DNA of 64,000 bases from an uncultured Candidatus Saccharibacteria bacterium (GTDB lineage Bacteria; Patescibacteriota; Minisyncoccia; Phycocordibacterales; UBA6065). The translations under genes were made by a program, and so were the position numbers. Each line of letters opens with the position of its first letter. The stretch's first letter is position 1. The stretch lies in the NCBI GenBank assembly GCA_964368835.1, contig CAYJCZ010000001.1:89481-153480 (forward strand). Direction: 5' to 3'. The notes beneath the pieces were generated by a model. That model saw only the letters and a program-made list of their open reading frames with translations, did not search any database and was not told where the DNA came from. Of the stretch, positions 7,421 through 49,065 are shown piece after piece.

Positions 7421-7439
7421 TTAAAATTAAATGAGTTAT

Positions 7440-7830
7440 CCACACTACTTGTCCTTTACATGTCTTTTATCGCTGATAGAATGTCTGAGGAGGCAACGGG
7501 GACTAATTCGTTTCGTACGAAGAAGAGCCTCGAAGATGGTTCTTTACACATAAGTCGGTAATCGTTTAAGGTTTGGTCTCGGGTAGCGGTTCGGGTTGGT
7601 GCTCAACGTTGTGCGCTTATCAGGTGATGAACGTAGATCGTTGAGTGTCACAGAACCGGCACTCAACTTGGTCCACAAGGACCTACATTTGAAAGGAAAG
7701 CTCCAGCGAGCGCAGAAAACGCCTCCTCAAAAGGCAACATAATTAATTATTGCGTGCCTCCCTAGTGGAGAAAACGCTCTGTACTCACTAAGCGTCCCTT
7801 TCATAACCGTCGCACACTTGCGGCGGTTTG
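7440..7830. other. GC-rich non-coding block, candidate structured RNA (identity unassigned)
   Basis: About 390 nt with no credible ORF, visibly higher GC than its surroundings and many short perfect helices (GGTCC-ACAA-GGACC; GTTGAGTG...CACTCAAC; CTCAACG...CGTTGAG). Flanked by the xth terminator and the cca terminator. Confidence 0.25.
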
Positions 7831-7847
7831 TTGTTTCTGGACAATCA

Positions 7848-7875
7848 AGCAAAAATGGCTCTGTTGAGCCATTTT
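7848..7875. terminator. bidirectional hairpin terminator (AAAAATGGCTC-TGTT-GAGCCATTTTT)
   Basis: Perfect 7-bp stem flanked by A and T runs, immediately downstream of the cca stop on the minus strand. Related copies at 13513 and 13564. Confidence 0.6.
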
Positions 7876-7877
7876 TA

Positions 7878-9383: not shown

Positions 9384-9448
9384 GGGACTATTGTACTTCC
9401 ATTGGCATTTTTTGGGAAATCAGAACCGTGCTATACTGTTATATAAAT

Positions 9449-10141
9449 ATGAAAGCAAGGTTGGAAGATAGAAATAAGGCCATAGAATTAAGAAAGCAGG
9501 GTCACAGCTACAAGGAGATCCAGGCTTTTGTACGTGTGTCTAAGGGGCTACTTTCTATGTGGCTCTCAGATCTCAAGCTGTCCTCGGACGAGGAAAAGAG
9601 GTTACACACAAAGCTTCAGGAACGTAAAAATAGGGGAAAGCTAAACTCAAAGATCTTAAATAATTCCAGGCGACTTGATCGTGAACGAAGGGTAGCAAAG
9701 GAAGGGGAGCAGATGTATAAAAAGTGGAAAAACGATCCACTGTTTCTTATGGGTGTGATGCTGTTTTGGACACAGGGTTCACAGTCGTCTCCTGATTTTA
9801 ATTTTATGAGTAAGGACACCGACATGATCTTTGTGATGAACGCATGGGTTCAAAAGTATCTTGGTGTAGGGAAGGAGGATGTAAAAGTAAGGATTTTCCT
9901 GCCAGAAGGCTCACAATCACATGGGATCACTGGTTTTTGGGCTAAAAATCTGGGTATTTCCGAGGATTTGATAAAGGTTTCACGTGAAAAGTCCCGTAAA
10001 GTGGCCTTAAAAAATGATCCTTTCAATAAAGGGTGTGTAAGACTAACGATTTTTGGCGTTAGATATAGGCGACTTATGACTATATGGCAGAAACTGACGA
10101 TAGATTTCCACGGAAAGGCTTTACTTGGCCATAGAATCTAA
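9449..10141 (+). CDS. hypothetical protein with N-terminal helix-turn-helix
   Basis: MKARLEDRNKAIELRKQGHSYKEIQAFVRVSKGLLSMWL resembles the HTH of small DNA-binding or transposase N-domains. No catalytic domain recognised. Start moved to the internal ATG. Confidence 0.45.
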   Translation: MKARLEDRNKAIELRKQGHSYKEIQAFVRVSKGLLSMWLSDLKLSSDEEKRLHTKLQERKNRGKLNSKILNNSRRLDRERRVAKEGEQMYKKWKNDPLFLMGVMLFWTQGSQSSPDFNFMSKDTDMIFVMNAWVQKYLGVGKEDVKVRIFLPEGSQSHGITGFWAKNLGISEDLIKVSREKSRKVALKNDPFNKGCVRLTIFGVRYRRLMTIWQKLTIDFHGKALLGHRI

Positions 10142-10145
10142 AAAT

Positions 10146-10221
10146 TGGTGCTTCCGGAGGGATTCGAACCCCCAACAACGGTTCCGAAGACCGGTATGAT
10201 ATCCATTTCACTACGGAAGCA
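10146..10221 (-). tRNA. tRNA-Arg (anticodon TCG, tentative)
   Basis: Read on the minus strand: TGCTTCC acceptor paired with GGAAGCA, T-arm GGGGGTTCGAATCCCTC, 3-prime CCA encoded, anticodon loop CTTCGGA. Confidence 0.7.
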
Positions 10222-10280
10222 ATGTGCATATCATACGTGAAAATGAATATAAATCAAAAATATGATAGGATTTTTGGTAG

Positions 10281-10493
10281 ATGATCCCAATAAATCGACA
10301 ACGAGCGATAGATGACTTCATTCTGTTTACAACACCGCAGCCTTTTGATACAAGGCCCATGGCTAGTCCGGTAAAGACTGGCTTTACAGGCACAACACTT
10401 GCAGTTAGCCATGTTGATCCTAAGACAGGTAAGCATCCGCCTGGAGATGTACCGTCTGAGGAGGCAGCAAAGCAAATCACCCAAGAGGGGTGA
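10281..10493 (+). CDS. possible 70-aa ORF (alternatively part of a small RNA)
   Basis: The ORF ends inside a strong hairpin plus T-run (ATCACCC-aaga-GGGGTGAT-TTTTT). The region is GC-rich and lies between two tRNAs; coding status is uncertain. Confidence 0.25.
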   Translation: MIPINRQRAIDDFILFTTPQPFDTRPMASPVKTGFTGTTLAVSHVDPKTGKHPPGDVPSEEAAKQITQEG

Positions 10494-10547
10494 TTTTTTC
10501 TTAACAATTTGGAAAATATTCATTGTTGGTGTAGTATTTTCGCTATC

Positions 10548-10618
10548 GCGGGTATCGTTTAGTGGTAGGACACGTCCTTGCCAAGGATGAGGTGAGAGTT
10601 CGATTCTCTCTACCCGCA
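10548..10618 (+). tRNA. tRNA-Gly (GCC)
   Basis: GCGGGTA acceptor, anticodon stem-loop CGTCC-TTGCCAA-GGATG, T-arm GAGTTCGATTCTC. No encoded CCA. Followed by a hairpin plus T-run at 10627-10650. Confidence 0.75.
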
Positions 10619-10969
10619 CAAAGTAAAAAGCGCCTCTTGGGGCGTTTTTTGTTGCTATAAAAGGGACATTCGCCTGTCTTTGAAGTAAAGAGCGGTTTTG
10701 AAACATTAAGGGCATGAATTGCGTATAAAAAAATTCTAAAATACCGCAATAGGGTATGTGTTTTTTGAAAAACTGTGGATAACTCTGGGGATTGTGTTTA
10801 AAAGACAGTCTTTGAGAATTGCGACTAAATCTGTCTTTTGTCCTTATAAGCGCTCTATAAGGCCATAAATTGACATTTCGAATATTAGATTAAGTAATTC
10901 ACAGATTTATCCACGTCTAACAACTTTTCAGTTTAGATTTACTTTATCTGCCTGTGAAATGATGGAAAA

Positions 10970-11368
10970 ATGAAGAAATTTACATCACCAAGCCAGAAAA
11001 CCGGTGAGTTTGCTGAGAATCTTGCTGCTTTATACTTGAAAAAGATGGGTTTCACTATTCTCGATAGAAACTATACTCAAAAATGGGGAGAGATAGATAT
11101 AGTGGCTAGAAAGGGGAGAATTGTTCATTTTGTTGAGGTAAAGAGTGTTACACGTGAAAACTTTGCTACTTTTGCTGGTGATGAAGCGCGTCCAGAAGAC
11201 CAGATGCATGTTCGAAAACAAACGCGACTCATAAGGACAATAAAGACATATCTAGTCTCGCACGAGGTTGTCGACTGGCAATTTGACCTTTTGGCCTTGT
11301 ATCTCGATCATGCCCAAAGAAAAGCCTATGTAAGGCCTTTGTACGATATTATCTTAGGAGAACATTAG
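10970..11368 (+). CDS. YraN/UPF0102 family endonuclease-like protein
   Basis: GEFAENLAALYLKKMGFTILDRNY...GEIDIVARKG matches the conserved UPF0102 (YraN) N-terminal motif. Confidence 0.75.
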   Translation: MKKFTSPSQKTGEFAENLAALYLKKMGFTILDRNYTQKWGEIDIVARKGRIVHFVEVKSVTRENFATFAGDEARPEDQMHVRKQTRLIRTIKTYLVSHEVVDWQFDLLALYLDHAQRKAYVRPLYDIILGEH

Positions 11369-11412
11369 GTTTTTTGGCTGATTATGCTAGTATGTGGAAG
11401 TTCAAAAAATAT

Positions 11413-11485
11413 CGGGGCGTGGTGTAACGGCTAACATGCTTGACTTGGGATCAAGTGACTCTGGGTTCGAATCCCAGCGCCCCGA
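11413..11485 (+). tRNA. tRNA-Pro (TGG)
   Basis: CGGGGCG acceptor paired with CGCCCCG, anticodon stem-loop CTTGA-CTTGGGA-TCAAG, T-arm CTGGGTTCGAATCCCAG. Confidence 0.75.
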
Positions 11486-11505
11486 CAAGACGAAGTTTTT
11501 GGTGG

Positions 11506-11820
11506 ATGATGATCTGTATGCCAAAAAACTCTTTCATTAACGATAGATATAAGAAAGTGAGGGGAGGTTACTCACGTCTTTTAGAGATTTCCTGTGAAAA
11601 GTGCAAAGAACCTGTTTGTTCGTATCAGAAGGATGGTCCAGGTGGATTACGTAGGATGTATCTAGACCGAATACTTAATCCTCGCGTCTCAATAACTCGA
11701 AAAGACTTTTCTTGTTCAAACAATCACTTGCTTGGAGTAAAGATTGTGTACGAAAAAGAAAACCGACCAGCATTTCGACTTTTTGTAGATGCTATAAAGA
11801 AAAAGATTATCAAATCCTAA
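11506..11820 (+). CDS. small Cys-rich (zinc-ribbon-like) hypothetical protein
   Basis: CEKCKEPVCSY and CSNNH Cys pairs. The tracked ORF starts inside the tRNA-Pro, so the start was moved to the first ATG after the tRNA. Its stop overlaps the next gene's ATG (TAATG). Confidence 0.45.
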   Translation: MMICMPKNSFINDRYKKVRGGYSRLLEISCEKCKEPVCSYQKDGPGGLRRMYLDRILNPRVSITRKDFSCSNNHLLGVKIVYEKENRPAFRLFVDAIKKKIIKS

Positions 11821-12125
11821 TGTCTAAAAAATTTACGCGGACAATTGAAGACTTTGTGTGCGAACACTGCGGCACTGCTGTTGTCGGTAATGGCTATACA
11901 AATCATTGTCCAAAATGTTTATGGTCAAAGCACGTTGATATAAATCCAGGAGACAGGGAAGAGACGTGTGGTGGACTTATGGAGCCAATTCAAATAGAAA
12001 AAGAAGGTAAAGATTTTAAACTTACTCAGAAATGCGTGAAGTGTGGTTTCGCTAGGCGAGATCATTTGCGTGACGAAGACAATTTCGAAGCTTTCCTAGC
12101 GCTCTCTCGAAAATTCGGCCAGTAG
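11820..12125 (+). CDS. RNHCP-domain zinc-finger protein
   Basis: CEHCGTAV...GYTNHCPKCLWSKH...CVKCGF matches the RNHCP motif family. Start at the internal ATG overlapping the upstream stop. Confidence 0.6.
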   Translation: MSKKFTRTIEDFVCEHCGTAVVGNGYTNHCPKCLWSKHVDINPGDREETCGGLMEPIQIEKEGKDFKLTQKCVKCGFARRDHLRDEDNFEAFLALSRKFGQ

Positions 12126-12436
12126 ATTTCGTCAAGAAGATTAAAACGACTTATCTATAGGGCTAATTGACTTTTTCGTTTGAAATGGTGAATTCGGATG
12201 GTAATTGAAAGAAAATGCACTCCATCCATCCTAATTCTCTGAGTAAGGCCCGACAAACTTTTTATTGTCATTGGAATCAATCGGTGTCAAATTTTTCAGC
12301 CAGCTTTGACAGTACAATTCTCTCGTGATTTTTTATATTTCGTTTAGAATACAGGTCTATACTTTCATATGAAAGGGAGGACAGCACTCATCTTTCATAA
12401 AGGTTTTGTTTATAAGAACAACTAATGTGAAATACC

Positions 12437-12514
12437 ATGACAGGTACACCAAACACCCCAAAACAGCCTAAGCAGCCTAAGAAGCCAGCGGCTCCAGTTC
12501 CTCCAACTGCGTAA
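12437..12514 (+). CDS. possible 25-aa Pro/Lys-rich micro-ORF
   Basis: ATG...TAA encoding MTGTPNTPKQPKQPKKPAAPVPPTA, followed directly by a terminator hairpin (AAAACTCCGGA-tta-CTCCGGAGTTTTG at 12519-12548). Confidence 0.2.
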   Translation: MTGTPNTPKQPKQPKKPAAPVPPTA

Positions 12515-12616
12515 GGTATTCAAAACTCCGGATTACTCCGGAGTTTTGTTTTACACGGCTTAACCATTAGAAATTAATAGGGAAGTATGATACATTGATT
12601 CTCGTCAAAGTTACTT

Positions 12617-12687
12617 GCGGGCGTGGTTTAATGGTAGAACGATTGCCTTCCAAGCAGTACGTCCGGGTTCGATTCCCGGCGCCCGCA
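12617..12687 (+). tRNA. tRNA-Gly (TCC)
   Basis: GCGGGCG acceptor paired with CGCCCGC, anticodon stem-loop ATTGC-CTTCCAA-GCAGT, T-arm TCCGGGTTCGATTCCCGG. Confidence 0.75.
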
Positions 12688-12765
12688 CATTTTGTGAGAG
12701 ACCGAGGTGTTTGAAGGTTGATAAAGTCAGTACACAGACTTTATTAATTAAGTTATTGTAGGGGT

Positions 12766-12975
12766 ATGGAAAATAAAAAAACAGCAAAATCTTGGTTGAT
12801 ACTAGGTGCGGTCTTTATCGTCATTCTGTTTATCGCAGCCTATCTGATTAACTCAGAGATACTAGATGTGTCATATGGTGCATATACCTTGATATCAGCA
12901 ATATTCGGATTCGGCGGAACACTTTTTCTGCTTATTGGAATCATTAAACTCATCATCGAAAAGTTTCGAAAATAG
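12766..12975 (+). CDS. small membrane protein (2 predicted TM)
   Basis: 69 aa with two hydrophobic helices. Followed by the hairpin terminator at 13021-13050. Confidence 0.4.
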   Translation: MENKKTAKSWLILGAVFIVILFIAAYLINSEILDVSYGAYTLISAIFGFGGTLFLLIGIIKLIIEKFRK

Positions 12976-13020
12976 GTTTACGAACCGAGCAGGAGCCTAG
13001 AATATCTATAAGAGGAAACA

Positions 13021-13050
13021 CAAAACCCACCATGAGGTGGGTTTTGTTTT
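13021..13050. terminator. bidirectional hairpin terminator
   Basis: AAAACCCACC-atga-GGTGGGTTTTGTTTT, between convergent genes. Confidence 0.6.
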
Positions 13051-13066
13051 AGCTTGTGAGCAATAA

Positions 13067-13339
13067 TTATTTTACTGCGTCTTTCAAAGCCTTTGCTGCT
13101 CGGAACTTTGGAACCTTCATTGCTGGGACTGATATTGTCTCTCCAGTTCGAGGATTTCGAGCCTGGCGAGCCTTTCTCGTCTTTACAGAGAAGATACCGA
13201 GGCCTGCGATCGATACTTCATCGCCCTTCTTTAGACCTGCGACGATTGAATCGAACACCTTATCTACTACCTGCTCTGCCTGTACCTTGGTTGTATTGAG
13301 AACACCATGGACTGCTTCTACGATTGCTGCTTTGTTCAT
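13067..13339 (-). CDS. hup: HU family DNA-binding protein
   Basis: MNKAAIVEAV...GDEVSIAGLGIFSVKTRKARQARNPRTGETI is the canonical HU/IHF fold sequence. Confidence 0.85.
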   Translation of the reverse strand: MNKAAIVEAVHGVLNTTKVQAEQVVDKVFDSIVAGLKKGDEVSIAGLGIFSVKTRKARQARNPRTGETISVPAMKVPKFRAAKALKDAVK

Positions 13340-13563
13340 TTGATTGAAACTAGCTTATAAAGATTTACCCATAGAACCTATTACATCACTTTACATGTGA
13401 GACGTTTGGCCGCTCATAAATAAAGTAGTCTAGTGAGTTCTATCTCAGCGCGGAGAATCGCGAGGTATGGTCTATATAAAGTATATATGAAGCCATTTAT
13501 TAGGCAAATGACAAAAATATGGCTCTGTTGACAACTTTTAGACTGAAAAACAGAAATAACTAA

Positions 13564-13593
13564 AAAATGGCCCTATTGAGCCATTTTTTAAGA
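13564..13593. terminator. hairpin terminator downstream of rny (copy of the AAAAATGGC...GCCATTTTT motif)
   Basis: AAAAAATGGCC-ctatt-GAGCCATTTTTT. A degenerate copy lies at 13513-13540. Confidence 0.5.
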
Positions 13594-13595
13594 TT

Positions 13596-15125
13596 TTATC
13601 TCGCGAAATCAACCACTCTAGACTCGCGTATTAATGTAATTTTAATTTCACCTGGATACTTGAGATCGCGTTCTATCCTTTCTGCTATTGTACGTGCCAT
13701 ATTTTTTGATTCTATATCTGTGATTTCTTCCGGCTTAACAAATATGCGGATTTCGCGACCAGCTTGGAGTGCGTATGCTTTTTCTACACCAGGAAGGGAG
13801 GTTGCTATAGCCTCAAGATCCTGAAGTCGCTTGAGATAATTCTCTACGCTGTCATGTCGTGCGCCAGGGCGAGCGCCAGAAATTGCATCGGCCACCTGAA
13901 CGATGATCGATTCGACGGTTTCGTACGGATATTCCTCGTGATGAGCCTGCATTGCCTTAACGATTGCTTCATCCGCACCGAATTTCTGAAGGATTCTGCG
14001 ACCAATCTCGACATGTGTTCCCTGAACCTCATGATCAAGTGCCTTACCGATGTCATGAACAAGTGCTCCTGCCTTGGCGATTTGAACGTTTGCGCCCAAT
14101 TCCTCAGCTATCATGCCTGCTATGTGTGCCATTTCTACTGAGTGTTGGAGGACATTCTGCCCATAGGAGGTTCTGAAGTAGAGACGTCCCAATATAGCGA
14201 CAATTCGAGGGTCGAGATTCATAACGCCTGTTTCAAAGGTCGCTTGCTCGCCCTTTTCCTTAATTATCTTGTTTATGTCCTCTTTTGCTTTCTCAACAAG
14301 TTTTTCAATCTTTGCTGGCTGAATACGGCCGTCGGCAATGAGGGCTTCAAGTGCAAGTCGTGCTACCTGACGGCGGATAGGGTCAAATGACGATAGGGTA
14401 ATGCTTCCTGGGGTGTCATCAACAATGACTTCGACACCCGTTGCACGTTCAAAGCTTTTAATATTTCGCCCTTCTTTGCCAATAACCTTACCTTTGATTT
14501 CATCTGATGCGATGGCAACAGTAGTGGAAAATATATCTGCCGTAACAGCATTTCCAAGTCTCTGGATCGCCGTAGCCAAAATATCCTTTGCACGAGATTC
14601 AATCTTCTCCTGGTTAGACATTTCAAGCTTCTGCATTCGAACAACAAGATCGTCTCCATACTTTTTCTCTATGTCTTTGACGAGCTCATCCTTTGCTTCG
14701 GTTGTTGTGAGTCGTGCTGTCTTTTCAAGCACCTCAGTTCTGTCAGTCAAAAGCTTATCTGCCTTTTCTTTGATTGCTCGTATTTCGACAGCCTTACCTT
14801 TGATGCTTTCAACTTCTGAGTCTAGATCCGCCTGACGCTTCTCAAGAAGGTCTTCTTTCTTTATAAGTCGTTCTTCGGTTGCCTTAAGTTTTTCTTCTTT
14901 TTCTTTTGCCGTTTCTCGCGACTCTTTGAGAGTTTCAGCTGCCTTGTGTTCAGCTTGGAGAATAATTTTCTTTGCTTCTTCTTGCGCACCAACTTCCATC
15001 TTTTTTATCTCAAGCTCCATTGAACCGCGCTTGCCCAATGAAATGATGAGTCGCAAGTAATAGCCCAAAGCGATCCCAACAAGCCCTGCGATGCTTGCGA
15101 GAAGTATGACGATTTTAAGTGACAT
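13596..15125 (-). CDS. rny: ribonuclease Y
   Basis: N-terminal TM, long coiled-coil, KH domain (IGKEGRNIKSFERATGVEVIV) and HD domain (VHDIGKALDHE). Confidence 0.9.
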   Translation of the reverse strand: MSLKIVILLASIAGLVGIALGYYLRLIISLGKRGSMELEIKKMEVGAQEEAKKIILQAEHKAAETLKESRETAKEKEEKLKATEERLIKKEDLLEKRQADLDSEVESIKGKAVEIRAIKEKADKLLTDRTEVLEKTARLTTTEAKDELVKDIEKKYGDDLVVRMQKLEMSNQEKIESRAKDILATAIQRLGNAVTADIFSTTVAIASDEIKGKVIGKEGRNIKSFERATGVEVIVDDTPGSITLSSFDPIRRQVARLALEALIADGRIQPAKIEKLVEKAKEDINKIIKEKGEQATFETGVMNLDPRIVAILGRLYFRTSYGQNVLQHSVEMAHIAGMIAEELGANVQIAKAGALVHDIGKALDHEVQGTHVEIGRRILQKFGADEAIVKAMQAHHEEYPYETVESIIVQVADAISGARPGARHDSVENYLKRLQDLEAIATSLPGVEKAYALQAGREIRIFVKPEEITDIESKNMARTIAERIERDLKYPGEIKITLIRESRVVDFAR

Positions 15126-15343
15126 GTGTAATGGCGGCAGCTCTTCTAGCGGTCTGGATGAAATTGTGGAGGTGTCAGTTCGGGCGGGGAAAGGAAATTA
15201 GGGTTCAAGAGAATCGGTAGAGAACAACCGGTAATTTAAAAGTGGTAACGACCTCATACTACATATAAAGGAGTGGGGTGGCAAGACATAACAAAAAAAG
15301 CCTTCAAAAATAATTTCGAAGGCTTTCTTATTGTAATTTCTTA

Positions 15344-15919
15344 TTAAAGTATCTTGTCTACAACTCCATACTTTTTTGCTTCTTCAGCATCCATAAAGAA
15401 ATCTCGGTCGACATCTTTTTCAATCTGACTGATAGACTTGCCGGTGTTGTCTGCAAGAATTTTGTTGAGACGTTCACGAGTTTTCAAAATATGTTTTGCG
15501 GTGATTGCGATATCTGCAGCCTGACCTTCAACTCCACCAAGTGGCTGATGGATCATTACTTCAGCGTTCGGCAAAATGAATCGCTTTCCTTTTTCACCTG
15601 CAGACAAAATGACTGCACCCATTGATGCTGCCATTCCCACGCATACAGTCGAGACATCATTCTTGATGTGGTTCATCGTGTCGATGATTGCAAGACCTGC
15701 AGTGACTGAACCGCCTGGTGAATTTACATAAAGTGAAATATCTTTTTTCGAATCCTCTGATTGAAGGAAAAGAAATTGAGCAATGATGGTGTTAGCAACA
15801 TGATCATCAATTGGGCCAGAAAGAAAAATAATATTTTCTTTGAGGAGTCGTGAGTAGATATCATACGCTCGCTCGCCGAGGTTTGTTTTTTCAATGACTG
15901 TTGGGATGAGTATGGACAT
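15344..15919 (-). CDS. clpP: ATP-dependent Clp protease proteolytic subunit
   Basis: [14 protein letters not shown]...[13 protein letters not shown] active-site Ser block and overall ClpP length. Confidence 0.9.
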
Positions 15920-41999: not shown

Positions 42000-42007
42000 A
42001 TGCTTCT

Positions 42008-42391
42008 TTATTCTGAATCAACTTCGACTCGAAAGCCACCGTAACAGAAACGCTTCCCATCAAACGGCATCCCCATTGCCTGCATTTCTGGACTATTCAT
42101 AGCGGGATCAGCCATAACTTTTGCGTTGACCTCATCGCGGTGTTCGCGTGAATTAAAAACTATAAATGAGAGCCAGACCGTCTCATCTTCTTTTGCATCG
42201 GCGGCACTCATAAACGAACGAGGCTTCATACCCATGCCTTCTGGGTGCAGATCGTCTCCGATACATTCTTTGTAATCGAGTGCGCCGTGTTTCATCCACA
42301 CTTCTTTTCCAAGTGTTGCCATCTTTTTATATTCAGCGATTTTATCTTTTGGAATGACAAGCAAGAATCCGTCTACGTATTTATTGTTCAT
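42008..42391 (-). CDS. DUF1428 family protein
   Basis: MNNKYVDGFLLVIPKDKIAEYKKMA...HGALDYKEC...EDETVWLSFIVFNSREHRDEVNAKVMADP matches the conserved DUF1428 (YbaA-like) pattern. Confidence 0.65.
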   Translation of the reverse strand: MNNKYVDGFLLVIPKDKIAEYKKMATLGKEVWMKHGALDYKECIGDDLHPEGMGMKPRSFMSAADAKEDETVWLSFIVFNSREHRDEVNAKVMADPAMNSPEMQAMGMPFDGKRFCYGGFRVEVDSE

Positions 42392-42474
42392 TGGTGTAAT
42401 TGTTTATACTGGCTATTACCTAATATATTACTCAAATATAATACTTGAATCTACCTCGCCATGTTTCGTTTGGG

Positions 42475-42500
42475 GGTGCTGTCGTAGGGGATGTTAGAAC
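42475..42500 (-). promoter_or_regulatory. 26-nt conserved motif copy 1 (sense: GTTCTAACATCCCCTACGACAGCACC), about 100 nt upstream of the DUF1428 gene
   Basis: One of three near-identical copies (42475, 43065, 45382), plus a palindromic variant at 43761, each 90-110 nt upstream of a minus-strand gene start. Confidence 0.45.
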
Positions 42501-42504
42501 CGTA

Positions 42505-42993
42505 TTATCTGGTTTTTATGACTGAGTCACCAATTAGATATAAAACGAGAGTTTGCCATGTCATAAATATATAAATCCAAGATGAGTCATTGTAATAAGG
42601 ATACGGCAAGCTGGATACAATGCCACCAATGAGCGAAATAAATAGTACTTTACGCATAGTGATTTTTTCGAGTAATTTGCTCGCAGTAAGAGTCATTACA
42701 AAACTTCCAAATGCTCCAGCGACGAAAAAAGTGATGTAGTCATTACCCGCAAGGGCTACACAAATTAAATAGCTTAGATAGAAGGTTGCGGTGGATATAC
42801 CAATCCATCCAATGGTACGCAAGATGACAAATTTATTTGTCCAATTCACAAATATGACAAGCCAGATTGTAGCAATTCCAAATACCAAGCCCGGTGCGAG
42901 TATAAATCCATATGGATCGGATAATAATATATAAGAAATAAATCCTGATACAAGACCTGTGATTACAAGCAGCAATCTTAAAAGTATTTTCAT
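42505..42993 (-). CDS. hypothetical polytopic membrane protein
   Basis: Five hydrophobic helices. Apparently leaderless, with an extended -10 (TGATATGAT) ending about 7 nt before the ATG. Confidence 0.5.
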   Translation of the reverse strand: MKILLRLLLVITGLVSGFISYILLSDPYGFILAPGLVFGIATIWLVIFVNWTNKFVILRTIGWIGISTATFYLSYLICVALAGNDYITFFVAGAFGSFVMTLTASKLLEKITMRKVLFISLIGGIVSSLPYPYYNDSSWIYIFMTWQTLVLYLIGDSVIKTR

Positions 42994-43064
42994 ACCAAAA
43001 TCATATCAGGTTAGAGCAGAGAAAGCTTTGTGATTATTAGATGAGAGGGGAGAAACTAACAATG

Positions 43065-43090
43065 GGTGCCGTCGTGGAGGAAGTTGGAAC
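43065..43090 (-). promoter_or_regulatory. 26-nt conserved motif copy 2 (sense: GTTCCAACTTCCTCCACGACGGCACC), contiguous with the conserved promoter module
   Basis: Immediately upstream (in sense orientation) of CCCATTGTTAGTTTCTCCCC...TGATATGAT...ATG. The whole 100-nt module is duplicated upstream of the gene at 45407-46459 (46460-46560). Confidence 0.45.
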
Positions 43091-43167
43091 TGGGTTTGAG
43101 AGGAGAAATAACGCGAGTGTCTATATTCCTGCGTCTTATCCCATCTCTGAATACAACAAATGTAAAT

Positions 43168-43200
43168 AAAAAAGCTCTGGATTTCTCCAGAGCTTCGCAA
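43168..43200 (-). terminator. intrinsic terminator of the GC-rich ORF
   Basis: Sense strand GAAGCTCTGGA-gaaa-TCCAGAGCTTTTTTATTT. Confidence 0.6.
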
Positions 43201-43206
43201 AGTGAA

Positions 43207-43635
43207 TTACCGTCCTTCCGGCCCGTATCCACGCATCCGTGTGTCATGATCCTCCTGCTTTTCTTCGTCTGTACGATGAGTGTCATGATCACCCTGCTTG
43301 AGAAACGCTTCATGCTCACGCTTGTTGCGTTGATGTTCATCAAGCGTACGGTCAATGACAGAAGACTGCCCTCCATGCCGCTCATAAGAAATTTGAGCAT
43401 TAAAGGCTGCATCGCACTCGGCGTCGATATTGGCTTTCCCTTTGCGATAGCCGAGCTGGAAGCAGGGAGAGTAACGGCTGAGGCTCTGACTCCGTATAAC
43501 CTCGTCATTGTAGCCTCGATCGTAACCCTTTTGCCATTCCTTTTTAGCTGAATCCACATTGCCTCCTAGTTCGGGGCAGGGAGGAATGTGAGCTGTCTCA
43601 CTACCTCCGCAATATCTGCATGCTGTTGAGCTCAT
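43207..43635 (-). CDS. hypothetical GC-rich ORF (charged, His/Asp/Glu-rich; CxxC pair at N-terminus), compositionally atypical
   Basis: 142-aa ORF with its own terminator. Two other long ORFs overlap it in other frames, a sign of locally high GC. Product unknown. Confidence 0.35.
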   Translation of the reverse strand: MSSTACRYCGGSETAHIPPCPELGGNVDSAKKEWQKGYDRGYNDEVIRSQSLSRYSPCFQLGYRKGKANIDAECDAAFNAQISYERHGGQSSVIDRTLDEHQRNKREHEAFLKQGDHDTHRTDEEKQEDHDTRMRGYGPEGR

Positions 43636-43760
43636 AGAATGTGCTAGCGGTGAATTATTCGTGTCACCTGATTTCCTTAGGAATCACACGTTGCTCGAAT
43701 GAGCGGATTTTGAAGAACTTAACTTTATGAATCCACGATCGAAATCGTGAACTCAATGAA

Positions 43761-43784
43761 GTGGAGGATGGTTAGATCCTCCAA
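43761..43784 (-). promoter_or_regulatory. palindromic variant of the 26-nt motif (GTGGAGGATGGTTAGATCCTCCA)
   Basis: The GGAGGAT core is paired with its inverted repeat ATCCTCC. It sits among three consecutive perfect hairpins in the 43740-43810 intergenic space. Confidence 0.35.
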
Positions 43785-43829
43785 TTTTGTGAATGATTCT
43801 CCATTCACGAGAGTTTGCAGAGAATACTG

Positions 43830-44348
43830 CTATTTAAGAACGCCGAGGAAGCAAACGCGAACGAAGCCTTTCTCGGTCTGGGGCAACCACAGTTTCCAGG
43901 GTTTTCCCGTCCCAGAAGCAATAAGCCCAGGAGCACGACCTACGGCCGTGATCGATCCAAGGGCGACGATCGGAATAGAATTTTGTCCCGCTTTGGGATT
44001 TTTGATCCCGTAGTCGAGAAGATCGCCGAGAGTGCCTGGTCGATAGCCTTCCTTGTTCATTTCGATGATCACCTTATCTTCATTGTTGAAGCTTCGATTG
44101 GGCCAAAAGCAGAAAAGCTTTTGACCTTGCCCGAGAACCAGAGTCTCGGGACCGAAGGTGTCTTCATTGATGTCGATGGGATGACCATTGAATGTCTTGA
44201 AGTGGCTGGGCATGTCTTTCAGGTTCATGGTAGTAGTATTCATTATAGTGATTTGATTGACAGTGTAAGGATTCTTCAGAATCAGCGTATGCCGATTTAC
44301 CGAAAACTCCCGATTTCTGCCAACCAACTCTGCATTCAAAGAACTCAT
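43830..44348 (-). CDS. hypothetical protein, paralog A of a diverged gene pair (with the ORF at 46676-47077)
   Basis: Start set at MSSLNAELVG, 7 nt after a consensus TTGACT-N17-TATAAT promoter. The promoter plus first codons are alignable at nucleotide level with 47078-47180. The proteins share an FNNEDKVIIEMNK / FNINEEKRVIALAK block. Confidence 0.45.
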   Translation of the reverse strand: MSSLNAELVGRNREFSVNRHTLILKNPYTVNQITIMNTTTMNLKDMPSHFKTFNGHPIDINEDTFGPETLVLGQGQKLFCFWPNRSFNNEDKVIIEMNKEGYRPGTLGDLLDYGIKNPKAGQNSIPIVALGSITAVGRAPGLIASGTGKPWKLWLPQTEKGFVRVCFLGVLK

Positions 44349-44444
44349 ATTTACGTATATATTATACACCTATTTGATGTAAAAGTCAAGTATTGTGAGC
44401 GTCAAAATAGCCCTATAAATAGGGGTTAAATTGGAGAAAAAATC

Positions 44445-44640
44445 GATGGGTGCCTAGAGAGACCGCGGGTACGCTTATCGCCCTCGACTAAAACTTTTTC
44501 GTCAAAAAGTTTTGTCTAGGCACCGCCTCGCACCCATCGGAAACCTTCGGGTCCCGCTCCGGCGTCCGATTCTCTCCCGCATGTCTACTAGACATGCTTA
44601 CGGCACCCAACAGAAAAACCGCTTTCGCGGCTTTTCAATT
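44445..44640. ncRNA. GC-rich structured element (candidate small RNA or structured insertion), identity unassigned
   Basis: A 9-bp long-range helix (GATGGGTGC at 44445 with GCACCCATC at 44530) encloses nested helices, including a perfect 10-bp hairpin AAAACTTTTT-cgtc-AAAAAGTTTT and an ACC-TTCG-GGT hairpin. Followed by GCATGTCTA-c-TAGACATGC and a terminator-like CCGC-GAAA-GCGG-TTTTT (minus-strand sense) at 44614-44636. Absent from the paralogous upstream region at 47078-47220. Confidence 0.3.
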
Positions 44641-44745
44641 GGGTCACTATCCGAACACAGTTATAACCATTTTGGAGGATAGGGAGTATATGGAATCTTT
44701 GTATGCAAAGTTTCTGGTTGTTAAGTATCTAAGAATAGAAGTTCC

Positions 44746-45309
44746 TTAATTTAATTCAGCAATATCACTTTTAGCTAAATAAGTTTTGATTTTTTCGATT
44801 TCTTCTAATACATTCTTCTTTCCAGACTCTGATTCAGCCCAGTTATCTTTTGTGAAAGGGTAGTATTCAGAATAATATGCAGCCGCTTTGAGTTTTATAT
44901 TAGCAGGTGTGTGTCTGCGTAGTGTCATCAGTGAACGACGGGCGTGATAATTTTTTACAACCCCAACAATTGTGTGGATGCTTTTAAGACCAATTTCTTT
45001 ATCAATCACCTTTAATGAAAACAGAACATTTTCTAATGTATTTGTAGACTCATTTTCTATAAGGATGTCATCTCTTTTAACACCAAGATTTATCAACTCA
45101 TTAGCCATATGATCACCCTCAATAATACCGGTTTGAGCATTTATACCGCCACTCACAATTATTTTAGGAACCAAACCCGTTCTGTATAGTTCGGCTGCTT
45201 TTTCAACAGAGCCCTTCCATGCATTCCATGTCCCAAATACTAAAGCCACATCGGCACTTTGATCAGTATCGTTAAGGAAAATATATTCCGATAGTTCCTT
45301 GTTCGTCAT
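44746..45309 (-). CDS. DUF218 (YdcF/SanA/ElyC-like) domain protein
   Basis: ALVFGTWNAWKGSVEKAAELYRTGLVPKIIVSGG...ENESTNTLEN matches the DUF218 core. Confidence 0.7.
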   Translation of the reverse strand: MTNKELSEYIFLNDTDQSADVALVFGTWNAWKGSVEKAAELYRTGLVPKIIVSGGINAQTGIIEGDHMANELINLGVKRDDILIENESTNTLENVLFSLKVIDKEIGLKSIHTIVGVVKNYHARRSLMTLRRHTPANIKLKAAAYYSEYYPFTKDNWAESESGKKNVLEEIEKIKTYLAKSDIAELN

Positions 45310-45381
45310 AGGAAAAAGTATAACAGTTCAATTCCGTGTAGCCTAAATAACCACTAAATCACAAGGGTTTGAATTTTCAGG

Positions 45382-45407
45382 GGTGCCGTCGTGGAGGATG
45401 TTAGAAC
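45382..45407 (-). promoter_or_regulatory. 26-nt conserved motif copy 3 (sense: GTTCTAACATCCTCCACGACGGCACC), overlapping the stop codon of the upstream gene and about 95 nt upstream of the DUF218 gene
   Basis: Differs at only 3 positions from copy 1. Confidence 0.45.
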
Positions 45408-46459
45408 TATTCTCTGTGCAAAATAATTCTTGTTGCATGCAGAACGCCTTGTGCATCTGTGGGGCCAGTAACCAATAGTCTAAATCCACCCGGTCCATCA
45501 TAGGGGCGTTTCATAATTTCTACTATTTCACTGAAGTTATCGTAATTTTGTTCCTTTGCAGATACAAACACTCTTTCGCCGTCAGACATATAACTTTCAG
45601 AATATTTAGCAGTAGAATAGTCTATCTTTAGTTTTTCTCCTTCGTAGTCGGATGTATGCCACAAACCATCGGCTGGGAAAGTGCCTCCAGATACAAATGT
45701 CACTACTTCGCCATCAATGGAGTAAACCGATGATTTTGTGAAAGTTTCGAGAGGCACTGGTTCGCCGAACATGACTTCATATCGAGAAGAGCACGGACAA
45801 TATGGCTCAGATACTCGGTCTGGAAAATCTTTATATCCAGCATGGATCAAGCTTTTGCGGTAGATGATTGAATAAAGATAATTGTCAGCGATTTTCACAT
45901 AACTTCCGACAGAACCATATGGGCCATCGGCGGAAGGTCCGTGAACTTCCTTATTGTCAATTTTTACAGACCAAGTCCAACCTCTCTTTTTCAACTCTGA
46001 CTCATAATACATGGATAGAGCTTGGTAGTTTGTATATTTATTGCCCTCATCAAGATTTTCTTCGCGAGACGTCCACCTGCTGTTTACATTTACAGGTATG
46101 GTTTTGTACTGGAATGGTTCAGATACAGTTATCGAGAGCTCAGTTCTTGTAGGGGACTCAGACTTCCAAGATAGTGATTGGAAGAGAGGGGGATAATCCG
46201 TAAGTCTTTGACTTACTCCAGCATATCCACCACCATCACCATCATAACCAATATTACTTTTTGTCGATGTTGCAGTCACGGCCTCAGGTCTAATATTTTC
46301 TTGAGATTGATCCTTACTTAAAAAATAAAATCCGCCAATTACAATTAAAAAAGCAATTAGAGCGATTACTAAAATATTCTTAGACAGATGTTTTGGTTCC
46401 TGAATAATACTTTGAGATTCGCTCGGAACATGAGGTGCCGATTGTTGTTGATTTTCCAT
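45407..46459 (-). CDS. hypothetical secreted/membrane-anchored protein (350 aa)
   Basis: N-terminal TM after a short cytoplasmic segment. Apparently leaderless, with an extended -10 (TGGTATGAT). Its upstream 100 nt is homologous to 42994-43090. Confidence 0.5.
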   Translation of the reverse strand: MENQQQSAPHVPSESQSIIQEPKHLSKNILVIALIAFLIVIGGFYFLSKDQSQENIRPEAVTATSTKSNIGYDGDGGGYAGVSQRLTDYPPLFQSLSWKSESPTRTELSITVSEPFQYKTIPVNVNSRWTSREENLDEGNKYTNYQALSMYYESELKKRGWTWSVKIDNKEVHGPSADGPYGSVGSYVKIADNYLYSIIYRKSLIHAGYKDFPDRVSEPYCPCSSRYEVMFGEPVPLETFTKSSVYSIDGEVVTFVSGGTFPADGLWHTSDYEGEKLKIDYSTAKYSESYMSDGERVFVSAKEQNYDNFSEIVEIMKRPYDGPGGFRLLVTGPTDAQGVLHATRIILHRE

Positions 46460-46629
46460 ATCAAAATCATACCAGGTTAAAACTGAAAAAGCCTTGAGGT
46501 TATTAGACGAAAGGGAAGAAACTAACGATGGGTCGAGACAGGTCGGCTATTCTGGAGGTGTTGGGGGATAGGGAGTATTTAAATATAGTAGGGGAGAAGT
46601 TGGAGTATGTGGCATTATTTGCATAACAA

Positions 46630-46658
46630 AACCCGCGGAGCACTTTCGTGATGCGGGT
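46630..46658 (-). terminator. terminator-like hairpin after paralog B
   Basis: Sense strand AACCCGC-atcacgaaagtgctcc-GCGGGTTTTGTT. Confidence 0.4.
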
Positions 46659-46675
46659 TGGAAATGAAATCTCAA

Positions 46676-47077
46676 TCAATGCTTCTTGATAACGTAACAG
46701 TAGTTATAGTCCACTAGAAATGGTACTACGAAGGCGTTTATGATTCTTAATTCAGCCTTTTGACACACTTCGAGCAAACGTTTGGCAAGAGCAATCACCC
46801 GTTTTTCTTCATTGATGTTAAACGTAATGGAGATTTGAGGGGGATAACAATGCGTGTTGTCTTCGATATTGCAGCCTAGTGACTTGATTTCTGGCCACTC
46901 TTTCAATTGACTCGCTAATACCCTAAGTGTCACGCGATCATTATCCATATCTGTTTTGGCACTATTAACGGTTTTGGTAGCCACCGTCGGGGCATTGGAA
47001 TTGTCAGATGTGTTTGTCATGAGCAGGAACGGCCGATAATTCAGCCGCTTTTGTCCATGACAACCATCCTGTATCAA
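46676..47077 (-). CDS. hypothetical protein, paralog B (alternative TTG start as tracked)
   Basis: Shares the promoter/5-prime module and a C-terminal block with the ORF at 43830-44348. The start codon is uncertain: the position homologous to ATG in A is AAT here. Confidence 0.4.
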   Translation of the reverse strand: MIQDGCHGQKRLNYRPFLLMTNTSDNSNAPTVATKTVNSAKTDMDNDRVTLRVLASQLKEWPEIKSLGCNIEDNTHCYPPQISITFNINEEKRVIALAKRLLEVCQKAELRIINAFVVPFLVDYNYCYVIKKH

Positions 47078-47220
47078 AGAACTATTACCTATATATTATA
47101 TCATTTTACACTCAAAAGTCAAGTATAGGCTAGAACCAAAATAGTCCTTTGAATTTGGGTTAAATGGGAGAAAGAATAGATTATAAAAATGACGCTTATA
47201 TCGTCTCTTTAAAATCAAAT

Positions 47221-47616
47221 TTAAAAATATTTCTTTATTTCCATAGGCCAGACCAAAAGGCTCTTTACCAAGTCAGTATCAACCCAAAGTGCCTCAAAGA
47301 ATGTGTCTTTGTCGGTTCCAATATTCTCTGGGCTATTTGGCTGCAAGTGGGGAATACCGCTTATGAATTTAAATTCAAAAGTATGATGTGTCCTTCCGTT
47401 AGAACAGACAAATGATTCTATTTTTCTTATGAATGATGATTCGATTGAAGTTTCCTCCCATACTTCTCTGACCACAGCTTGCTCCGGTGTTTCACCTTCT
47501 TCAAGTGTTCCTCCAGGGAGCATATATACATCTTCTCCAGGTTTATGTCTGCAAAGCATTAGAACTTTTCCATCTTTAATTATGAGTGCCGCAGCTCGAT
47601 CCTTTTTCATTTGCAA
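47221..47616 (-). CDS. NUDIX hydrolase
   Basis: Nudix box GGTLEEGETPEQAVVREVWEETSIE. Confidence 0.75.
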   Translation of the reverse strand: MQMKKDRAAALIIKDGKVLMLCRHKPGEDVYMLPGGTLEEGETPEQAVVREVWEETSIESSFIRKIESFVCSNGRTHHTFEFKFISGIPHLQPNSPENIGTDKDTFFEALWVDTDLVKSLLVWPMEIKKYF

Positions 47617-47669: not shown

Positions 47670-47747
47670 TGGTGGGGTGCCTAGAGGGAATCGAACCCTC
47701 GACGCCGGGACCACAATCCAGCGTTTTACCACTAAACTATAGGCACC
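47670..47747 (-). tRNA. tRNA-His (GTG) with genomically encoded G-1 and 3-prime CCA
   Basis: Minus-strand read: G-GTGCCTA...CTGGA-TTGTGGT-CCCGG...GAGGGTTCGATTCCCTC-TAGGCAC-C-CCA. The extra 5-prime G opposite discriminator C is the His identity element. Confidence 0.75.
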
Positions 47748-48653: not shown

Positions 48654-48962
48654 ATGGCATACAAGAAAATTGAAGATTTATACGCCGCGCAAAAGAGACA
48701 TAGGGTTAAAGTCAGGGGACTCCTTTTCAATTTTTTACTTACCAAATCCTGTATTGATTGTGGCGAGAAAGATCCGATAGTACTTGATTTTGATCACCGA
48801 ACACCTGATACTAAATTCAAGCCGATTTCAAAAATGCTGTCAGGTCACTATTCCTGGGAGTCGCTTATGAGGGAAATAAAGAAATGCGACATTAGATGTG
48901 CTAACTGTCATCGTCGCAGGTCACACAAACAATTTGGTTATTTCGGAAGAATGCCCTTGTAG
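48654..48962 (+). CDS. HNH endonuclease
   Basis: CIDCGEK...DFDHRTPD...CANCHRRRSH HNH/zinc-finger motifs. The 3-prime end overlaps the first 10 nt of tRNA-Arg. Confidence 0.75.
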   Translation: MAYKKIEDLYAAQKRHRVKVRGLLFNFLLTKSCIDCGEKDPIVLDFDHRTPDTKFKPISKMLSGHYSWESLMREIKKCDIRCANCHRRRSHKQFGYFGRMPL

Positions 48963-49024
48963 TTTAATGGATAAAACTCCGGACTTCTAAGCCGGGTATC
49001 GTGGTTCGATTCCACGCGAGGGCA
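48953..49024 (+). tRNA. tRNA-Arg (TCT, tentative)
   Basis: GCCCTTG acceptor paired with CGAGGGC, anticodon loop CTTCTAA, T-arm CGTGGTTCGATTCCACG. Followed by a bidirectional terminator at 49033-49064 (AAAACCACTCC-agtgc-GGAGTGGTTTTATTTTT). Confidence 0.7.
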
Positions 49025-49065
49025 CATGAAAAATAAAACCACTCCAGTGCGGAGTGGTTTTATTT

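Follow-up and report, generated by a model that had tools for sequence, protein, structure and literature searches.

Layout of the island downstream of tRNA-His

The 64,000-nucleotide stretch of DNA analysed here (positions 89,481 to 153,480 of contig CAYJCZ010000001.1; below, the window) carries on its minus strand an island of accessory genes that follows tRNA-His and is divided into short units by repeated sequences. The order on this strand is rplS, tRNA-Leu, tRNA-His and island, the latter spanning from about position 47672 down to 42474. Here we describe the island and the evidence that one of its repeats derives from the gene of a large serine recombinase (LSR), and we consider how the units may have been assembled. 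Throughout, L numbers designate loci of related genomes or metagenomes and P numbers designate proteins, and X1 and X2 are boundary elements. Judged by the L19 protein encoded by rplS, the relatives of this genome belong to the Patescibacteria, among Paceibacterota/Candidatus Taylorbacteria-like metagenome-assembled genomes (MAGs). An identical L19 protein was found on a 1.2-kb contig of the highly fragmented assembly L001 (GCA_013573275.1, JACCEC012052799.1), and the same organism therefore appears to be a minor component of that assembly.

Comparison of positions 42000-47600 with the whole window revealed two types of module, each present twice. The copies of Module II (42987-43067 and 46453-46533) are 83% identical over 81 nt (E = 9e-18) and those of Module I (44351-44447 and 47085-47181) 74.5% identical over 98 nt (E = 1e-11); no copy of either was found in the remaining 58 kb of the window. 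A third repeat, the motif GGGTGCCGTCGTGGAGGATGTTAGAAC (27-28 nt), occurs at 42474, 43064 and 45381 with at most three mismatches, nowhere else in the 64 kb and in none of 100 shuffles. Both the duplicated modules and the recurring motif had been described in an earlier note on this DNA and withstood the comparison. The motif had also been taken for an upstream element of the minus-strand genes; instead, it sits at the 3′ boundary of the preceding unit and codes on the plus strand.

Read from tRNA-His, the island begins with a NUDIX gene, followed by Module I copy F with a gene of 114 or 133 amino acids and X2, and by Module II copy B with a 350-amino-acid gene and X1 copy C. Next come a promoter, the DUF218 gene and X2, and then a terminator and a structured RNA of 161 nt. 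The last part consists of Module I copy E, a gene of 137 or 172 amino acids, a 142-amino-acid gene and X1 copy A, then of Module II copy A, a 162-amino-acid gene and X1 copy D, beyond which lies the DUF1428 gene (Table 1). The five boundaries thus appear in the order X2, X1, X2, X1, X1.

The genes placed behind the modules are unrelated to each other. The 172- and 133-amino-acid proteins downstream of Module I, proposed to be diverged paralogs, gave a BLASTP E value of 29, and the 162- and 350-amino-acid proteins downstream of Module II one of 1.2. Pfam names four island proteins only (NUDIX, DUF218, DUF1428 and PNPOx-like). PADLOC reported no system, its sole match being that of the NUDIX protein to a candidate family. 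The 162-amino-acid membrane protein found itself alone among 5.8 billion proteins.

Comparison with 80 syntenic loci of relatives displayed a variable locus within a conserved frame. None of them contained a homolog of the proteins from DUF1428 through the 133-amino-acid protein, and the NUDIX protein had two weak matches (35% identity; L013 and L042), both off the syntenic position. Homologs were present for the flanking proteins, one of 181 amino acids upstream and, on the downstream side, DsbD and a PG-binding protein. Despite the different cargo, parts of the modules and the motif recur in these loci, always downstream of tRNA-His and on its strand, which agrees with the proposal of a cassette-like variable locus. 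A comparison between strains had also been suggested; the Logan contigs of the same strain are identical in layout and break at the repeats, and hold no information on presence or absence of single genes.

Upstream of the island, an open reading frame (ORF) for a 102-amino-acid HNH-endonuclease-like protein (CxxC...HxxxxxN...CxxCH; 48654-48962, plus strand) ends inside the start of tRNA-Arg(TCT) (48953-49025). Homologous DNA adjoins the same tRNA-Arg(TCT) in L041, L043 and L054.

Table 1. Features from tRNA-His to the far border of the island, with positions in the window (aa, amino acids; UTR, untranslated region; uORF, upstream ORF)
Feature	Position	Strand	Evidence or remark
tRNA-His(GTG), island anchor	47673..47746	-	ARAGORN and Rfam
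NUDIX hydrolase gene, first cargo after tRNA-His	47221..47616	-	Pfam PF00293, E 1e-16; PADLOC candidate family PDC-S07, E 4.6e-13
Module I copy F, core-adjacent arm with TTGACT-N16-TATAAT promoter and AGTTCTTTGA box	47085..47181	-	homologous to L015 12179-12299 (after X1) and L017 10693-10810 (directly after tRNA-His)
5′ UTR hairpin with 5-codon uORF (MDKSG) and likely true ATG (47020) of downstream gene	47011..47066	-	inverted repeat; hairpin, uORF and ATG kept in L015
Cargo ORF, listed as 133 aa, probably 114 aa from 47020	46676..47077	-	ORF list, Pfam; no family match
X2 element sB, small ORF MGRDRSAILEVLGDREYLNIVGEKLEYVALFA starting at core-like ATGGGT	46528..46626	+	peptide homologs on same relative strand in L014, L015, L111, L138; weaker in L089, L128
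Module II copy B, core-adjacent arm, TGGTATGAT 6 nt before ATG	46460..46529	-	self-comparison, related loci
Cargo gene, 350 aa, N-terminal membrane anchor	45407..46459	-	ORF list, Pfam; no family match
X1 copy C, short 28-nt form, recombinase-tail fragment (GAVVEDVRT...)	45381..45408	+	no start codon; overlaps stop codon of 350-aa gene
Cargo gene, DUF218 family, 187 aa	44746..45309	-	Pfam PF02698, E 2e-22
X2 element sC, LGHYPNTVITILEDREYMESLYAKFL..., ends at core-like GACCCAA	44639..44749	+	repeat; homologs in L011, L127
Terminator hairpin preceding structured RNA	44611-44632	-	
Structured RNA, type normally trailing a tRNA gene	44447..44608	-	fold z = -7.2; covariance model
Module I copy E, arm directly after tRNA-like core, TTGACT-N17-TATAAT promoter	44351..44447	-	self-comparison, related loci
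Cargo ORF, listed as 172 aa, most likely 137 aa from ATG 44243, after conserved 5′ UTR of ~105 nt with palindrome	43830..44348	-	homolog P0208; L150
Cargo ORF, 142 aa, Cys-rich N-terminus; then terminator at 43171-43196	43207..43635	-	
X1 copy A, extended form MGAVVEEVGTGFERRNNASVYIPASYPISEYNKCK	43062..43169	+	Shine-Dalgarno sequence and ATG come from Module II reverse complement
Module II copy A, core-adjacent arm, TGATATGAT 6 nt before ATG	42994..43063	-	self-comparison, related loci
Cargo gene, 162-aa multi-pass membrane protein, orphan	42505..42993	-	ORF list, Pfam
X1 copy D, short form (GAVVGDVRT...), last boundary before DUF1428 gene	42474..42501	+	
DUF1428 gene	42008-42391		beyond X1 copy D; followed by conserved flank

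Boundary elements and the recombinase gene

Other genomes contain the motif as part of a longer conserved element, about 75 nt in length. This element, X1, translates on the plus strand of the window to GAVVEDVRT(I/V)FE(K/R)RNDAT(I/V)YIP. Its variation has a periodicity of three nucleotides, with an entropy of 0.68, 0.56 and 1.02 at codon positions 1, 2 and 3 (11 copies from nine genomes). Differences between copies fall mainly on third positions and are synonymous or conservative; the proline codon, for example, is found as CCT, CCC, CCA or CCG. Between genomes whose L19 proteins have about 73% identity, X1 is identical at 27 of 27 positions.

A profile search with the X1 block retrieved at least 169 short hypothetical proteins (26-87 amino acids) without a Pfam domain. 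Longer matches (P0028, P0042 and P0076) carry in addition an N-terminal part, ...NEWFVPIEKAYPxLExEYxRLEL...LILSW, which corresponds to the C-terminal region of LSRs. The 540-amino-acid LSR of L090, which contains Resolvase, Recombinase and Zn_ribbon_recom domains and matches the A118, SprA and TP901-1 integrases, ends with ...NDWFVPIEKAYPELEAEYRRLEL...LILRWG.... In L105, a long LSR reading frame runs directly into the motif (...TLILEW-GAVVEDVRTVFERRNDATIYIPAFYHTL, followed by the stop codon). The same tail was found on the diverged LSRs of L107 (31% identity) and L146 (23%), and an exhaustive search uncovered diverged versions at the end of the full-length LSRs P0169 (556 amino acids) and P0174 (567 amino acids) and of the fragments P0123 and P0141. 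As LSR reading frames end in the same peptide, X1 is the 3′-terminal coding segment of an LSR gene; both its coding nature and its identity with the recombinase tail are evident from these alignments.

Taken as a gene of its own, the segment is often incomplete. The codon preceding it is TGG or CTG in 44 of the 87 copies that were read, many copies have no start codon, and copies C and D of the window are cut after 9-10 codons. Several other identities were considered. The small plus-strand ORFs, which have no match in Pfam, had been regarded as the N-terminus of an AbrB/VapB-like antitoxin, an assignment dropped once the LSR fusions were seen. An LSR of the L088 type was rejected as the N-terminal partner of X1 owing to disagreeing reading frames, the right partner being of the L090/L105 type. 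The motif is also not a partial tRNA composed of T-arm and acceptor, as its last 9 nt alone match tRNA-His. No X1 was found in the viral contigs of IMG/VR, which leaves a prophage origin unsupported.

The match to tRNA-His coincides with the point at which the recombinase gene is joined to its tail. At the LSR junction, the codons W-G-A (TGGGGTGCC) form the reverse complement of GGCACCCCA, the 3′ end of tRNA-His, located at 47673-47681 in the window and proposed here as the recombination core. Immediately behind an intact tRNA-His, L012, L055 and L061 contain an LSR gene on the other strand whose W-G codons coincide with GGCACCCCA. The LSR frame of L012 crosses W-G and continues into the tRNA antisense strand until it meets a stop codon (...LILEW-GAYRESNSG...). 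L012 at its tRNA junction and L105 at its X1 junction share the DNA on the LSR side of the core (TTCGAGAAT(C/G)AGT), indicating that the two junctions combine one set of arms in different ways. The tRNA-His 3′ end, X1 and the tRNA-like end of the RNA described below have the core GGCACCC(C)A in common. All four arm combinations were found: tRNA with Module I (L017), tRNA with LSR (L012), X1 with LSR (L105) and X1 with Module I (L015).

LSR genes occupy this site in L012, L055, L061, L105, L131 and L125. The latter two contain whole elements, in which the LSR gene is followed by 10-12 kb of cargo and then by X1; the cargo of L131 includes a Toprim/DUF3854 protein and a type III restriction-modification system. 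In L008, which stems from a related Taylorbacteria MAG, a decayed LSR C-terminus close to tRNA-His reads into the tRNA-like end of the RNA, and X1 follows 4.7 kb further on. The segment from LSR remnant to X1 (11580-15863) encodes a 401-amino-acid AAA ATPase, a 176-amino-acid partner, a 519-amino-acid KAP-like NTPase and a 340-amino-acid SIR2-like protein (putative labels by sequence reading). With this content it looks like a defence island at the same site. As the LSR occurs in the relatives only, we class the window as a recombinase-less array of scars and units and not as an intact element. On a short metagenome contig, a gene for a 371-amino-acid reverse transcriptase (RVT_1; L087 1244-2359) adjoins a junction of X1 and LSR remnant; it may be cargo of the retron or defence reverse transcriptase type.

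The position of X1 relative to tRNA-His was examined in 58 stretches obtained by an exact-pattern scan of metagenome contigs, which together with the genome loci gave 72 sequences. All 88 X1 copies in these sequences lie on the tRNA-His strand and none is inverted; where tRNA-His is visible, they are located downstream of it. The nearest upstream tRNA on the same strand is tRNA-His in 17 of the 19 metagenome loci showing one; in the 11 genome loci with X1, the nearest one upstream is always tRNA-His. In L098 (1928-2112) and L103 (319-812), X1 is closely preceded by tRNA-Arg and no tRNA-His is visible, which reflects either a differing tRNA cluster or a second target.

Direct arrays of X1 are frequent (L096, L104, L120, L121, L145 and L149). 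The longest, L089 (contig_29626, 283,896 bp; flipped, 548-12655), consists of tRNA-His and nine X1-bounded units in 12 kb, with cargo including HisG, NUDIX, CYTH, HD, methyltransferase and RibD_C genes. Several of its units open with one common module, AGCATTTTTTGAGCCCTATTTTTAAG. An LSR-type arm adjoins the last X1; the interior of the array is free of LSR sequence, a remnant being present only beyond it. With tRNA-His and X1 as borders, 54 intervals of 155-7713 nt were delimited; their median length is 1006 nt, and their ORFs sum up to 16605 amino acids on the tRNA strand versus 3706 on the opposite strand. Units mostly contain one or two genes, and in many intervals one gene fills the space from the core to the following X1. 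Units rarely contain LSR fragments, the sequence following the core is very heterogeneous, and cargo is almost entirely unique across arrays, with the exception of one gene common to L144 and L068 (61% identity).

Two of the five boundaries in the window, sB and sC, are supplied by the second family. The X2 peptide G.(D/Q)RS.IL..LSDREYL..VKEKL... lies at unit ends like X1 and adjoins a slightly different core (GGGGACCCA or GTGACCCCA). Further members were found in L014 (13199-13294), L015 (12954-13040), L111, L138, L127 and L011. No full-length gene with X2 as its tail was found.

Promoter modules and an RNA that trails tRNA genes

Modules I and II both begin exactly at the core. Module I is preceded by tRNA-His in L017, by X1 in L015, by X2 in L014 and by the tRNA-like RNA end in the window, a pattern expected of a right-hand arm that could be joined to different left arms. 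Module II, a widespread sequence of the form (C)ATCGTTAGATTTTCC...TTTTCAGTTCTAACCTGATAnnnTTTTGGT-ATG, follows tRNA-His in L135 and L126, X1 in L014, L121, L135 and window copy A, and X2 in window copy B. On their opposite strand, both modules contain ribosome binding sites of the GGAGAA type, and the tail codons are immediately preceded by an ATG or TTG. This would explain why many database entries read MGAVVED..., as the other strand of the modules supplies ribosome binding site and start. An AGTTCT-type box recurs in Module I, Module II and X1.

The consensus promoter proposed for Module I was confirmed, since its two copies, at 44389-44361 (N17) and 47122-47095 (N16), contain the two best sigma-70-like sites of the region, each with 11 matches out of 12. 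The translation starts proposed with it had to be revised. Instead of about 7 nt, the gap between -10 region and annotated start codon is 12 nt in copy E and 17 nt in copy F, and the starts likely lie 70-105 nt further downstream. What had been read as shared first codons of the two genes is a shared box in the 5′ UTR, AGTTCTTTGA, which after the Module I -10 region is non-coding in copy F, L015 and L017. The 133-amino-acid ORF most likely starts at ATG 47020, behind the conserved hairpin with its 5-codon uORF; between this protein and L015, the common part comprises the 5′ UTR and about 17 codons only. For the 172-amino-acid ORF, ATG 44243 is the most likely start: the homolog P0208 begins at MNTTTMN, matching this ATG, and in L150 the upstream ATG meets a stop codon, with the DNA including the palindrome conserved. 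This palindrome, AATCGGCATACGCTGATT (44273-44290, minus strand), is perfect in L150. Together with the hairpin at 47011-47066 it is a possible translational control element. Module I is thus predicted to be a strong promoter followed by a leader.

The extended -10 sequence of Module II was found close to the ATG as described, with TGnTATGAT ending 6 nt upstream. The part of Module II that is retained comprises the extended -10, six bases and an ATG opening a real ORF. At least 8 loci keep this arrangement; besides the window copies, about nine junctions show it, distributed over six genomes (L014, L110, L121, L126, L135 and L145), with real ORFs behind most of them. The conservation of this arrangement makes a leaderless start plausible for Module II, whereas the conserved 5′ UTRs speak against leaderless starts for Module I, so that the earlier suggestion may hold for one of the two modules.

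A 10-mer, CAGTTCTAAC, is common to the start of X1 and to the spacer just upstream of the Module II -10 region (window 42994-43063 and 43064-43090; L135, L121 and L126). GTTAGA, a partial inverse of the 10-mer, lies 4-9 nt after the core in Module II. The 10-mer could be a candidate protein-binding site common to both elements.

The structured RNA upstream of Module I copy E belongs to a family of its own. Neither the RNA nor the modules had a match in Rfam, whether searched at the gathering threshold in the whole window or at E <= 10 in 42300-47300; tRNAs and two chance matches only were returned. RNAalifold on a plain MAFFT alignment of seven members gave 6 pairs only and was replaced by a covariance model built from a four-member seed, with which we searched 1.2 Mb of related loci. 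The model recovered 30 members, for example the window copy, L033 3772-3925, L054 8895-9048 and L038 1509-1648. In the model-fitted alignment 91.8% of the cells pair and 35 of 35 pairs change on both sides, with a covariation score of 0.78 compared to 0.21 for shuffles and 0.07-0.14 for slid partners; the alignment leans to the model and these figures are somewhat generous. Of the 30 members, 26 lie at most 120 nt downstream of a tRNA gene on the same strand (Leu, Val, Ser, Arg or His).

Members are about 150 nt long. Their 5′ part is antisense to T-arm and acceptor end of the cognate tRNA with a hairpin inserted, and is followed by a conserved three-way core composed of CGGAGC-hairpin-GCGAG and then GUGCCCAGAC-hairpin-AGUCGAGGG. 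Their 3′ end is a copy of the final 10-19 nt of the tRNA. The window copy has a 5′ part antisense to the 3′ half of tRNA-His and closes with CTCTAGGCACCCA, a repeat of the tRNA-His 3′ end. No match to the model was found in 60 metagenome loci selected for X1, suggesting that the RNA is not tightly coupled to X1 arrays. We consider the family undescribed and a lead separate from the island.

In its position the window RNA is an exception, as it lies 3 kb from tRNA-His; this distance fits a first array inserted between the two. The succession of X2, GACCCAA, terminator and RNA in the window parallels tRNA-His, core, terminator and RNA in L008 and X2, core, terminator and RNA in L138. Based on these parallels, the first 3 kb of the island look as if inserted between tRNA-His and its original trailing RNA. 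The remaining island looks inserted at the tRNA-like end of the RNA, an end that, going by the reading frame of the LSR remnant, appears to have served as integration site in L008.

Possible origin of the island and its relation to known systems

We favour, with a probability of about 70%, the explanation that the island is an integration hot spot anchored at tRNA-His and built by LSR-mediated site-specific recombination, in which unrelated accessory genes were stacked. The attP site would lie inside the LSR reading frame about 30 codons before its stop, and attB would be the tRNA-His 3′ end. Integration would join the LSR gene to the tRNA antisense strand and leave the last 25-30 LSR codons, X1, behind at the distal border of the element, encoded on the strand not used by the cargo. 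If integration at this core recurred and the recombinase genes were subsequently lost, a row of co-oriented cargo units would result, each closing with an X1 or X2 scar. Modules I and II would be the DNA immediately to the right of the crossover core, derived either from the start of a unit or from the native flank, and may owe their conservation to the promoter that they provide for the unit's first gene. Their other strand would also give a ribosome binding site and start codon to the stranded tail peptide.

Several observations do not fit easily. A tblastn search with two LSRs (E <= 0.01) detected neither LSR nor remnant in the window, so that nothing in this stretch of the genome is expected to move the units. 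Module I occurs twice, and its copy F lies near the tRNA and not at the far end of the array, which a simple history of insertion always at the tRNA does not predict. The NUDIX segment ends without X1 or X2. For the LSR elements of L012 and L055, a search of the 10-kb flanks did not uncover an X1 at the far end, and no right-hand half-site common to the units is evident beyond the Module I and II families. Neither an excised circle nor an empty site nor polymorphism between strains was observed, the only same-strain contigs being identical in layout.

A doubtful alternative to this succession of insertions and losses is a serine-recombinase platform resembling an integron, in which the LSR-less units would be mobile cassettes handled in trans by an LSR located elsewhere. 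Circles carrying an X1/core/module junction would insert at tRNA-His or at another X1, with X1 corresponding to attC and tRNA-His to attI. The regular, compact and co-oriented units of one or two genes between direct X1 repeats (330-600 nt; window, L014, L024 and L065) are in line with such a platform, as are successive units that open with Module II and close with X1 (L135 and the window), the same module framework with different cargo in L014 and the window, the nine LSR-free units of L089 and the scarcity of LSR fragments in units. The same unit shape would also result from deletion of an LSR gene next to the core. Moreover, known LSRs require both half-sites, whereas the sequence following the core is not conserved across units, and Module II is unlike the true right arm, the LSR 3′ end. 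Apart from the cargo gene shared by L144 and L068, no cassette was found in two arrays, and no circular form was seen. Equally tentative is a more elaborate version, a Paceibacteria platform with self-promoted and often leaderless single-gene cassettes, for which the 3′ end of tRNA-His would be the site of insertion in trans. This version would include a recombinase switching between a full-length (free) and a tail-less (integrated) form, and a separate tRNA-trailing RNA that might offer extra landing sites or serve another function.

It is improbable that X1 and X2 are free-standing genes of small proteins, such as regulators or antitoxin-like proteins, with Module II as a divergent promoter region and no involvement of recombination. 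The reverse complement of Module II does provide a Shine-Dalgarno sequence (GGGGAG) and an ATG directly before GAVVE..., and among the at least 169 small predicted proteins several of those inspected start with MGAVVED. The same peptide is, however, the in-frame C-terminus of long LSR reading frames, even of very diverged ones, and neither the many copies without start codon, including the truncated copies C and D, nor the strict position and orientation towards tRNA-His are explained. Ordinary duplication, by which the modules would be promoter copies left from tandem gene duplication with drifted genes or the operator of one regulon, is very unlikely. It would account for modules that are 75-83% identical within one genome and for the AGTTCT-type box in modules and X1. 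It does not account for the dissimilar proteins behind the modules (E = 29 and 1.2), for modules placed at exact junctions with a tRNA-derived core, or for their recurrence in other genomes with other cargo and their absence from the remaining 58 kb. A classical integron with an IntI tyrosine recombinase, attI and promoterless cassettes with palindromic attC sites is hardly credible in spite of the co-oriented array of short cassettes with a repeated element between them. No integrase was present among the island ORFs scanned against Pfam, and the flank consists of tRNA genes and rplS. X1 is a sequence-conserved coding tail of a serine recombinase and no imperfect palindrome (no inverted-repeat pair maps there), and the units possess promoters of their own.

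If built by LSR recombination at tRNA-His, the island would differ from known LSR integrative elements (phiC31, Bxb1, A118, SPbeta SprA and TP901-1) in several respects. LSRs usually target protein-coding genes, while the target here is the 3′ end of a tRNA gene. The crossover would take place inside the recombinase reading frame, such that integration would swap the C-terminal 25-30 residues of the enzyme. At the far end, the scar consists of a conserved piece of coding sequence and piles up in arrays, and the window is devoid of a recombinase. Common features are the Resolvase, Recombinase and Zn-ribbon domains with matches to the A118, SprA and TP901-1 chains, one orientation, a short shared core, a recombinase gene beside the attachment site, and replication and defence cargo.

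Tycheposons of Prochlorococcus integrate at a few tRNA genes, where newcomers push older elements deeper and leave degenerate remnants and partial attachment repeats scattered through the island; they couple cargo to an integrase and to a primase or helicase as replication module, and 27 of 937 use a large serine recombinase (bioRxiv 10.1101/2020.12.28.424599). The tRNA-adjacent island with tandem and degenerate elements and repeated attachment remnants is similar, and the combination of LSR, Toprim/DUF3854 protein and cargo in L131 resembles tycheposons in general architecture only, a likeness drawn from their description. In contrast, the repeat found here is a split-off recombinase tail that has only 9 nt in common with the tRNA and is not a partial tRNA. 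The units are also far shorter, with a median of about 1 kb, and more regular in their packing; they open with conserved arms that carry promoters (Modules I and II), and the host belongs to the Patescibacteria.

A recombinase gene divided by its own attachment site is reminiscent of the archaeal integrases of the SSV1 type, for which Muskhelishvili (1993) and She et al. (2001-2004) reportedly described partitioning of the integrase gene upon tRNA integration and gene capture after integrase loss. There, as proposed here, attP is placed within the integrase reading frame, integration at a tRNA splits the gene into two parts flanking the element, and loss of function traps cargo in the chromosome. 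SSV1-type enzymes are tyrosine recombinases of archaeal viruses and plasmids and are inactivated by the split, whereas here a bacterial serine recombinase would exchange a short C-terminal tail only. A looser parallel is integration-dependent immunity of mycobacteriophages, in which, as Broussard et al. (2013) are said to have found, attP lies inside the repressor gene. There, as would be the case here, integration alters the C-terminus of an element-encoded protein, so that integrated and free forms differ; the protein concerned is a repressor, the enzyme a tyrosine integrase and an effect on protein stability was demonstrated, whereas here it would be the recombinase itself. With integrons the island shares anchored arrays of co-oriented, mostly single-gene and functionally unrelated cassettes with a recurring recombination-derived element. 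Unlike in integrons, there is no IntI, the boundary is sequence-conserved and coding instead of a folded palindrome, units have their own promoters and a tRNA serves as anchor. A description of this architecture was not found in literature searches on Patescibacteria islands and serine-recombinase cassette arrays.

The locus adds a serine-recombinase counterpart both to tRNA-anchored islands formed by successive integration and to integrases split by their own attachment site, and exchange of the C-terminal recombinase tail upon integration is a candidate directionality switch. As a marker of only 27 nt, X1 offers a cheap means to detect such islands in metagenomes. For RNA biology, the family of RNAs that trail tRNA genes (30 members in 1.2 Mb, covariation at every modelled pair) offers a lead of its own. 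Few ways of exchanging genes are recognised in Patescibacteria, whose genomes are tiny. The island points to a widely conserved mechanism by which these bacteria would collect accessory genes at one address, with a cargo ranging from restriction-modification and other defence-like systems over NUDIX and HD hydrolases and methyltransferases to many orphan membrane proteins.

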